Assembly: GCF_030013205.1 (NCBI RefSeq)
Contig: NZ_CP122648.1
From: Escherichia coli
Lineage (GTDB): Bacteria; Pseudomonadota; Gammaproteobacteria; Enterobacterales; Enterobacteriaceae
Length of the DNA: 64,000 nucleotides
Direction: 5' to 3' (one strand)
Shown here: positions 56,309-56,860 of the stretch, in pieces
How positions within the stretch are numbered: position 1 is the first letter of the stretch
Layout: every line of letters starts with the position of its first letter
Translations under genes and position numbers: made by a program
The notes under the pieces: model-generated
What the model saw: the letters and a program-made list of their open reading frames with translations, nothing else
Databases searched by the model: none
What the model was told of the DNA's origin: nothing

Positions 56309-56423
56309 AAGAAAACATCCCCTGAGAGTTTAATTTTCGTCAAGATGCGTGGCGGACAATCCCCTGCCAGCGAAACGTTATCTTCCTGCTCCAGGTTTGC
56401 GACAAATTGGTGCGTCGCAAAAA

Positions 56424-56438
56424 AGCAAACGTTTAGCT
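56424..56438 (-). promoter_or_regulatory. PurR-box-like motif upstream of ghxP (AGCAAACGTTTAGCT)
   Basis: Resembles the palindromic PurR operator ACGCAAACGTTTGCGT; ~115 bp upstream of ghxP start. Confidence 0.4.
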
Positions 56439-56563
56439 CCGCGCATACAAAACGGGTGGTAAAAAAAGCAAACGATTATCCGGCGATCATAGCGGCTTTT
56501 TCAACCGAAGTTTGCTGCTTTTTTCTCTTTTATTGTCTTGACGATGAAAAACCAGGCAATTGA

Positions 56564-56579
56564 TGCGCAAACGTTATCG
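56564..56579 (-). promoter_or_regulatory. Second PurR-box-like motif (GCGCAAACGTTATCGT)
   Basis: Close match to PurR operator consensus; ~255 bp upstream of ghxP start. Confidence 0.4.
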
Positions 56580-56828
56580 TCGATGCGCAAGATTGCAGCG
56601 TTATCGAGCCATATACCGTTCAGGATTGCGATAAAAAATCGTCTGAGATGACAAAAATATTGCGGCTAAAAAGTGTACTTTTACTCTGGCGAAGAAACGC
56701 CGGTGACATACAATTAAAGCATCAACACCAACCGGAACCTCCACCACGTGCTCGAATGAGGTGTGTTGACGTCGGGGGAAACCCTCCTGTGTACCAGCGG
56801 GATAGAGAGAAAGACAAAGACCGGAAAA

Positions 56829-56860
56829 CAAACTAAAGCGCCCTTGTGGCGCTTTAGTTT
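56829..56860. terminator. Hairpin overlapping soxR 3' end, candidate bidirectional terminator
   Basis: aaactaaagcgcc-cttg-tggcgctttagttt with flanking T/A runs; overlaps soxR stop codon. Confidence 0.45.

Follow-up and report, generated by a model that had tools for sequence, protein, structure and literature searches.

The ghxP-soxR Spacer and the SraL Small RNA

What fills the long stretch that separates ghxP from soxR in E. coli, and which gene do the PurR-like sequences lying in it serve? We examined these questions in a 64-kb stretch of an E. coli genome, called the window here, to which all positions refer unless stated otherwise. An earlier note on this DNA had pointed to two PurR-box-like sequences and a weaker third copy upstream of the permease gene ghxP, and to a hairpin at the far end of the gap that could close a small RNA. 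The gap of 545 bp described there was borne out in both coordinates and length, and the K-12 spacer is equally long with few substitutions compared to the window. A 651-bp query around the spacer was present in 5420 of 5426 complete E. coli genomes, and the layout of the region is as follows:

54959-56308, minus strand: ghxP (yjcD), guanine/hypoxanthine permease gene and the regulated gene (ORF, RefSeq annotation, Pfam Xan_ur_permease)
56309-56853: ghxP-soxR intergenic region, 545 bp
56721-56861, plus strand: sraL/ryjA small RNA gene, 141 nt, convergent with soxR with an 8-nt overlap (Rfam RF01408)
56854-57318, minus strand: soxR
57404-57727, plus strand: soxS

We consider it highly probable that the spacer consists of two known and independent units placed back to back, the small RNA gene sraL/ryjA and the control region of ghxP. 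An Rfam scan of 55800-57500 at E values up to 1 gave one strong match, sraL (RF01408), with 153.3 bits against a gathering threshold of 39, an E value of 3e-36 and coverage of model positions 1-142 of 142. This full-length match identifies the independent small RNA that had been thought possible, ending at the hairpin, as sraL. Positions 56721-56861 are also 100% identical to and co-linear with K-12 ncRNA ryjA (b4459, 4277926-4278066; K-12 coordinates are obtained as 4334787 minus the window position), so the placing of RyjA between soxR and yjcD in the earlier note was accurate, with b4459 mapping exactly to this interval. The gene in the window shares with SraL/RyjA (RF01408, K-12 b4459) the full-length model match, the sequence, the position convergent with soxR, the terminator and the -10/TAA promoter features, and with no detectable difference from b4459 it is that gene as carried by another E. 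coli strain. Across Enterobacteriaceae, sraL adjoins soxR in 103 retrieved loci. Two signals flank the transcript:

56709-56714, plus strand: sraL -10 element TACAAT, followed by TAAAG (read from the sequence)
56830-56860, unstranded: SraL intrinsic terminator hairpin with a 13-bp stem, 5-nt loop and U run (terminator scan, MFE fold)

The hairpin with a T-run that had been placed at 56829-56860 was recovered with its stem at 56830-56860, 13 pairs and the T run, and Rfam also matches it, more weakly, on the reverse strand. With the soxR stop codon (56854-56856) inside it, the hairpin probably ends soxR transcription as well, on the opposite strand, in which case the terminator would be used bidirectionally. 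The sraL transcript starts at 56721, which is both position 1 of the Rfam match and the 5' end of K-12 ryjA, 7 nt downstream of the -10 element. In Salmonella, SraL transcription is RpoS-dependent and SraL represses tig (Silva et al. 2013, PMC3753932), shields rho mRNA against premature termination (PMC6582626) and binds Hfq (PMC3753932, PMC6582626). Following this literature the sraL promoter would be of the RpoS type, and the -10 element TACAAT and the TAA motif are present here. SraL would be an independent RpoS-driven unit ending at the hairpin across the soxR stop codon.

An insertion of about 178 bp adjoins the SraL/soxR terminator in 155 of 5426 complete E. coli genomes, for example at positions 2113-2290 of locus L001 (E. 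coli 118UI), equivalent to window position ~56862. The inserted DNA is an intergenic repeat, rich in GC and imperfectly palindromic, and genomes have a median of 5 partial copies of it. It duplicates about 23 bp of the 3' half of the terminator, and soxR then ends at half a hairpin.

PurR Operators Upstream of ghxP

The PurR matrix check proposed in the earlier note was run using a position weight matrix built from 27 ChIP-supported motifs (Table 1 of Cho et al. 2011, PMC3159470) with the yjcD entry excluded. Both strands of the whole window were scanned (128,000 positions), and the training sites themselves score 12.2-24.9 bits. Four sequences upstream of ghxP are considered here:

56423-56438, minus strand: proximal PurR operator AGCTAAACGTTTGCTT, 19.25 bits, at about +32 to +47 of the predicted transcript
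56466-56481, minus strand: middle PurR-like box GGATAATCGTTTGCTT, 11.8 bits, rank 7, just below the training range
56565-56580, minus strand: distal PurR operator ACGATAACGTTTGCGC, 18.37 bits, centred at about -104 from the predicted ghxP start
56369-56384, minus strand: fourth PurR-like 16-mer AAGATAACGTTTCGCT, 8.3 bits

The two boxes named in the earlier note are the top two sites of the 64 kb and fall within the training range, ranking first (19.25 bits) and second (18.37 bits) with the next match elsewhere at 12.7 bits. By the exact score distribution, the chance expectation for sites of at least 18.4 bits in 545 bp is about 3.6e-4. The first box had been quoted as AGCAAACGTTTAGCT at 56424-56438, which holds as a position, the complete 16-mer being 56423-56438; the second, GCGCAAACGTTATCGT, had been placed at 56564-56579, one base off from its actual position of 56565-56580, and ACGATAACGTTTGCGC is its reverse complement. 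Compared to the operators of the PurR regulon (16-bp palindrome ACGNAAACGTTTGCNT; Cho et al. 2011), these two sites score within the validated range. The remaining top matches of the matrix (21959-21974, 39015-39030, 62115-62130 and 10331-10346) score 12.0-12.7 bits, at the bottom of the validated range, where about 2-3 are expected by chance per 64 kb.

The weaker third copy, quoted as AAGCAAACGATTATC at 56466-56480, is present, and at 11.8 bits it stops just short of the range of validated sites. This middle box consists of a -10 element fused to the consensus PurR right half-site CGTTTGCTT. The fourth 16-mer sits at chance level when taken alone (8.3 bits, 0.13 expected in the region) and does not qualify as an operator.

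Predicted ghxP Promoter and Published PurR Control

Only one promoter-like match was found on the ghxP strand, agreeing with the consensus at 10 of 12 positions:

56475-56504, minus strand: predicted ghxP sigma-70 promoter, with -35 TTGAAA at 56504-56499, an 18-nt spacer and -10 GATAAT at 56480-56475

The -35 (GTTGAAA) and -10 (GATAAT) sequences are invariant across 20 genera and lie 18 nt apart, and transcription of ghxP would start at about 56468-56469. As this start is predicted, so is the position of each box relative to +1. A second promoter at the distal box was considered and rejected, since neither TTGCGC has an acceptable -10 spaced 16-18 bp from it.

The SraL core was searched for in one genome per species, and this returned 120 loci, 103 with sraL beside soxR and 80 that included the ghxP start. 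The distal and proximal boxes are conserved in all 80 of these species and the middle box in 77, where it scores 11.5-14.9 bits outside E. coli. The order of the three boxes is the same in essentially every species, and the substitutions seen in them (AATCG, CGATT) are variants that are frequent among validated PurR sites.

PurR binding in this region has been observed in vivo. Cho et al. (2011, PMC3159470) found a ChIP-chip peak labelled 'ryjA/yjcD' with adenine only, and the sole motif listed for it, ACGATAACGTTTGCGC, is the distal box, i.e., the second box of the earlier note. The peak (4,275,855-4,276,485 in U00096.2) converts to window positions 56325-56955 and spans all of the boxes; at 630 bp its resolution is too coarse to tell which of them PurR occupies. 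Repression of yjcD by adenine via PurR is described in PMC3809563, citing Marbach 2012, and likewise in PMC6892915 and PMC8376909, where ghxP belongs to the PurR-1 iModulon. A PurR motif upstream of ghxP is also reported in PMC6892915, with positions absent from the portion of the text consulted. PurR control of ghxP, as proposed in the earlier note, is therefore published, and PurR repression of the gene is already known, as is the small RNA SraL/RyjA at this locus. In the parts of the PurR literature consulted there is no description of a three-box arrangement at ghxP, Cho et al. (2011) giving a single motif.

A Conserved Fold in the ghxP Leader

With a start at about 56468-56469, the proximal box would lie within the ghxP transcript. 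RNAalifold on 56 distinct leader sequences gave two helices, P1 and P2, and a third, H2, comes from the MFE fold of the E. coli sequence, which independently yields P1 and P2 as well:

56342-56450, minus strand: structured core of the ghxP 5' leader, 109 nt (covariation, covariance model)
56446-56439 with 56352-56345, minus strand: leader helix P1, long-range
56438-56428 with 56379-56369, minus strand: leader helix H2, its 5' strand being the proximal PurR box
56421-56414 with 56403-56396, minus strand: leader hairpin P2

Across the 56 sequences, 93.4% of the cells in the 12 pairs of P1 and P2 are standard pairs, and 8 of the 12 pairs have changed on both sides (e.g., AU/CG/UA and UA/AU/CG/GC). 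None of 500 shuffles paired as well, and when the partners were slid against each other only 20-57% of cells were paired. We also built a covariance model of the 109-nt core, which gives 117 bits for the window; for 19 loci kept out of the model it gives 62-105 bits, with insertions confined to loops. The alignment of these 19 loci reaches 93.9% pairing, and P2 has several pair types there, though an alignment fitted by a model leans to the structure of that model. Folding single sequences from 8 species reproduced this layout; six of them have z-scores of -1.6 to -3.3 and the other two about +0.5 to +0.9. Altogether, the fold is supported by compensatory changes across more than 70 enterobacterial species. 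Helices 4 and 5, which the MFE fold gives for E. coli, reach 49% and 69% pairing with hardly any covariation and were excluded from the model.

In H2, the proximal PurR box (AGCUAAACGUU) and the fourth PurR-like box (AACGUUUCGCU) form the two strands and pair with each other. The sole variable pair of this helix, 38/105, is C-G in 29 and U-A in 21 sequences, with U-G intermediates. The fourth PurR-like 16-mer is best explained as the 3' strand of H2, and its reading as an operator is disfavoured.

These observations raise the possibility, which we think rather unlikely, that the proximal box is kept mainly as a strand of the leader helix and that PurR acts solely via the distal and promoter-overlapping sites. 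The box does pair with 56369-56379 in every fold, with one pair covarying, and Cho et al. gave the distal motif alone; at 19.25 bits, however, it is the best PurR match in the 64 kb, and its changes to AATCG (A to T) and CGATT (T to A) stay typical PurR variants although they disrupt the RNA pair. PurR operators past the transcription start also have precedent in purB and purR (Cho 2011). Because RNA structure also constrains the box, its conservation may in part not reflect PurR binding. The proximal box seems to be under both constraints, as a PurR operator and through RNA pairing.

Other readings of the conserved leader were considered and set aside. An RNA on the opposite strand is disfavoured by 81 G-U cells against 24 A-C cells, a ratio that favours the ghxP sense strand. 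A leader peptide could begin at an AUG at 56446, which opens a 22-codon ORF in E. coli, but roughly half of the species lack this AUG, whose bases covary as part of P1. An intrinsic attenuator does not fit either, with a U run that precedes P2 and only a very weak hairpin formed by the palindrome within the box.

Like the purine riboswitch (RF00167) and the xanthine/NMT1 motif, the fold is a covariation-supported 5' leader structure of a purine transport gene. It differs from them in lacking an Rfam match, an expression platform and a known ligand, and in being restricted to ghxP orthologues. In the Rfam scan at E values up to 1 no family matched the fold, and the covariance model had no match upstream of K-12 ghxQ, adeP, adeQ, xanP, xanQ or uacT. 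No expression platform was found: neither P2 nor P1 is followed by a U run, and the Shine-Dalgarno sequence (56318-56323) lies outside the fold in an A-rich segment. In the parts of the literature covered by searches for ghxP, and for ghxP together with riboswitch, no description of a ghxP leader RNA turned up.

GGA-containing motifs were also seen in this region. One lies in the internal loop of the leader (~56385-56395, minus strand), as ACAAGGAU in many genera and GCAGGAAG in E. coli, and another, CAGGGGAUGU, is at the Shine-Dalgarno sequence (56318-56323, minus strand). Both resemble CsrA sites, a resemblance that is speculative and drawn from sequence alone.

Loss of a GST Gene and Assignment of the Distal Operator

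In Escherichia 412 bp separate the ghxP ATG from the sraL +1, against about 1085-1330 bp in 60 of the 80 species, most of the Enterobacteriaceae sampled. The species with a long spacer carry a 222-aa ORF on the ghxP strand between ghxP and sraL, with Pfam GST_N/GST_C domains (for example positions 347-1015 of the ghxP-sraL spacer in locus L039). This GST gene is absent from Escherichia, Trabulsiella, the Citrobacter freundii group and a few others. Pairwise comparison of the window with Citrobacter amalonaticus and C. sedlakii placed the breakpoints: 56310-56597 is homologous to the ghxP-proximal 288 bp of these species, and 56631-56853 to their GST start region and sraL, leaving one junction:

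~56598-56630, unstranded: junction left by GST gene loss (pairwise homology breakpoints)

A tblastn search for a GST pseudogene remnant in E. coli gave zero matches, and Escherichia and a few other lineages have lost the GST gene cleanly. Three things make the E. coli spacer long: the small RNA gene, the leader of about 160 nt, and its origin as what remains of a three-gene interval after loss of the GST gene.

The same comparison bears on which gene the distal box belongs to. In 77 of 79 species it lies 100 bp from the ghxP -10, measured start to start, and this distance is kept although the 83 bp in between exist in 73 different versions that average 63% identity. The segments flanking this fixed spacer vary (41-45 bp or 119-135 bp, plus larger insertions in some genera), and from species to species the separation between the distal box and sraL goes from about 150 bp up to beyond 800 bp. 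Since its distance to the -10 is fixed while that to sraL varies, we assign the distal box to ghxP.

That the PurR boxes instead control sraL, or both divergent genes and not ghxP alone, we regard as very improbable. Such an arrangement could be read from E. coli by itself, where only ~150 bp separate the distal box from the sraL start downstream of it, and from the label 'ryjA/yjcD', by which Cho et al. assigned the peak to both genes. In 60 of the 80 species, however, the GST gene puts more than 800 bp between the boxes and sraL and their position at the ghxP promoter stays fixed. Expression of SraL is also accounted for by RpoS (PMC3753932), and the PurR-1 iModulon includes ghxP and excludes sraL (PMC6892915, PMC8376909). 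These comparative data settle the ambiguity of the 'ryjA/yjcD' peak in favour of ghxP.

The idea that an AT-rich promoter region yields the PurR-like motifs by chance and that the hairpin serves solely as the soxR terminator, to which the chance-level fourth box (8.3 bits, 0.13 expected) and borderline third box might lend some colour, deserves virtually no credence and is already refuted, given two sites of at least 18 bits that are expected 4e-4 times, their conservation in 80 species, the in vivo PurR occupancy of the region (Cho 2011) and the full-length sraL match of 153 bits.

A further conserved element was seen just upstream of the distal box. The heptamer TTGCGCA (56584-56590, minus strand) is invariant in the 20-genus alignment and forms a direct repeat with the identical heptamer within the distal box, 21 bp away. 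In most genera it is preceded by TGTTGC-N4, making the region (56584-56607, minus strand) a candidate site for another regulator, and the combined TGTTGC-N4-TTGCGCA may resemble CytR octamers. One broad literature search gave no link of CsrA or CytR to ghxP.

Proposed Control of ghxP and Its Significance

Assigning all three boxes to ghxP, we propose that when hypoxanthine or guanine is abundant, PurR with its corepressor would occupy the sites at about -104, -5 and +39 and turn ghxP off. The box overlapping the promoter (-10/+1) would act by occluding RNA polymerase, the box in the leader at about +39 could act as a roadblock to transcription by analogy with purB and purR, and the distal box at about -104 may add repression that depends on helical phasing. 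The outcome of PurR action at ghxP would be negative feedback on purine uptake.

The leader operator has its closest parallel in purB and purR, where PurR operators lie downstream of the start (Cho 2011, PMC3159470) and thus likewise inside the transcribed region. Theirs are in coding sequence and that of ghxP is in an untranslated, structured leader, with a roadblock there suggested by the analogy. Compared with the PurR regulon, ghxP stands apart in having three sites at about -104, -5 and +39, a rigid distal spacing and a leader site that is also an RNA helix strand.

The constant 100-bp spacing of the distal box despite divergent intervening sequence suggests a phasing constraint. PurR is a dimer with no looping known to us, which leaves the rigid spacing at -104 unexplained. 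Tentatively, and with less than even confidence, we suggest that the leader could be a cis-acting RNA found throughout the Enterobacteriaceae, that the operator within it could double as a strand of H2 and that the 100-bp spacing could reflect a phased multi-operator complex.

Both parts of the earlier finding, SraL/RyjA and PurR control of ghxP, are right and were already published. What goes beyond the literature searched is the conserved fold of the ghxP leader and the fixed geometry of the three boxes. The control region of ghxP is more elaborate than the single site given in the literature consulted, with three conserved PurR-type boxes and a covarying leader. If our suggestion for the leader is true, the same bases would be read by PurR as DNA and by the fold as RNA, and purine uptake would be subject to a post-transcriptional layer, whether through stability, as a platform for a protein or small RNA, or through ligand sensing. 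Should the leader prove regulatory, ghxP would be a rare case, in a well-studied organism, in which the same sequence does duty as a repressor operator and as an RNA helix.
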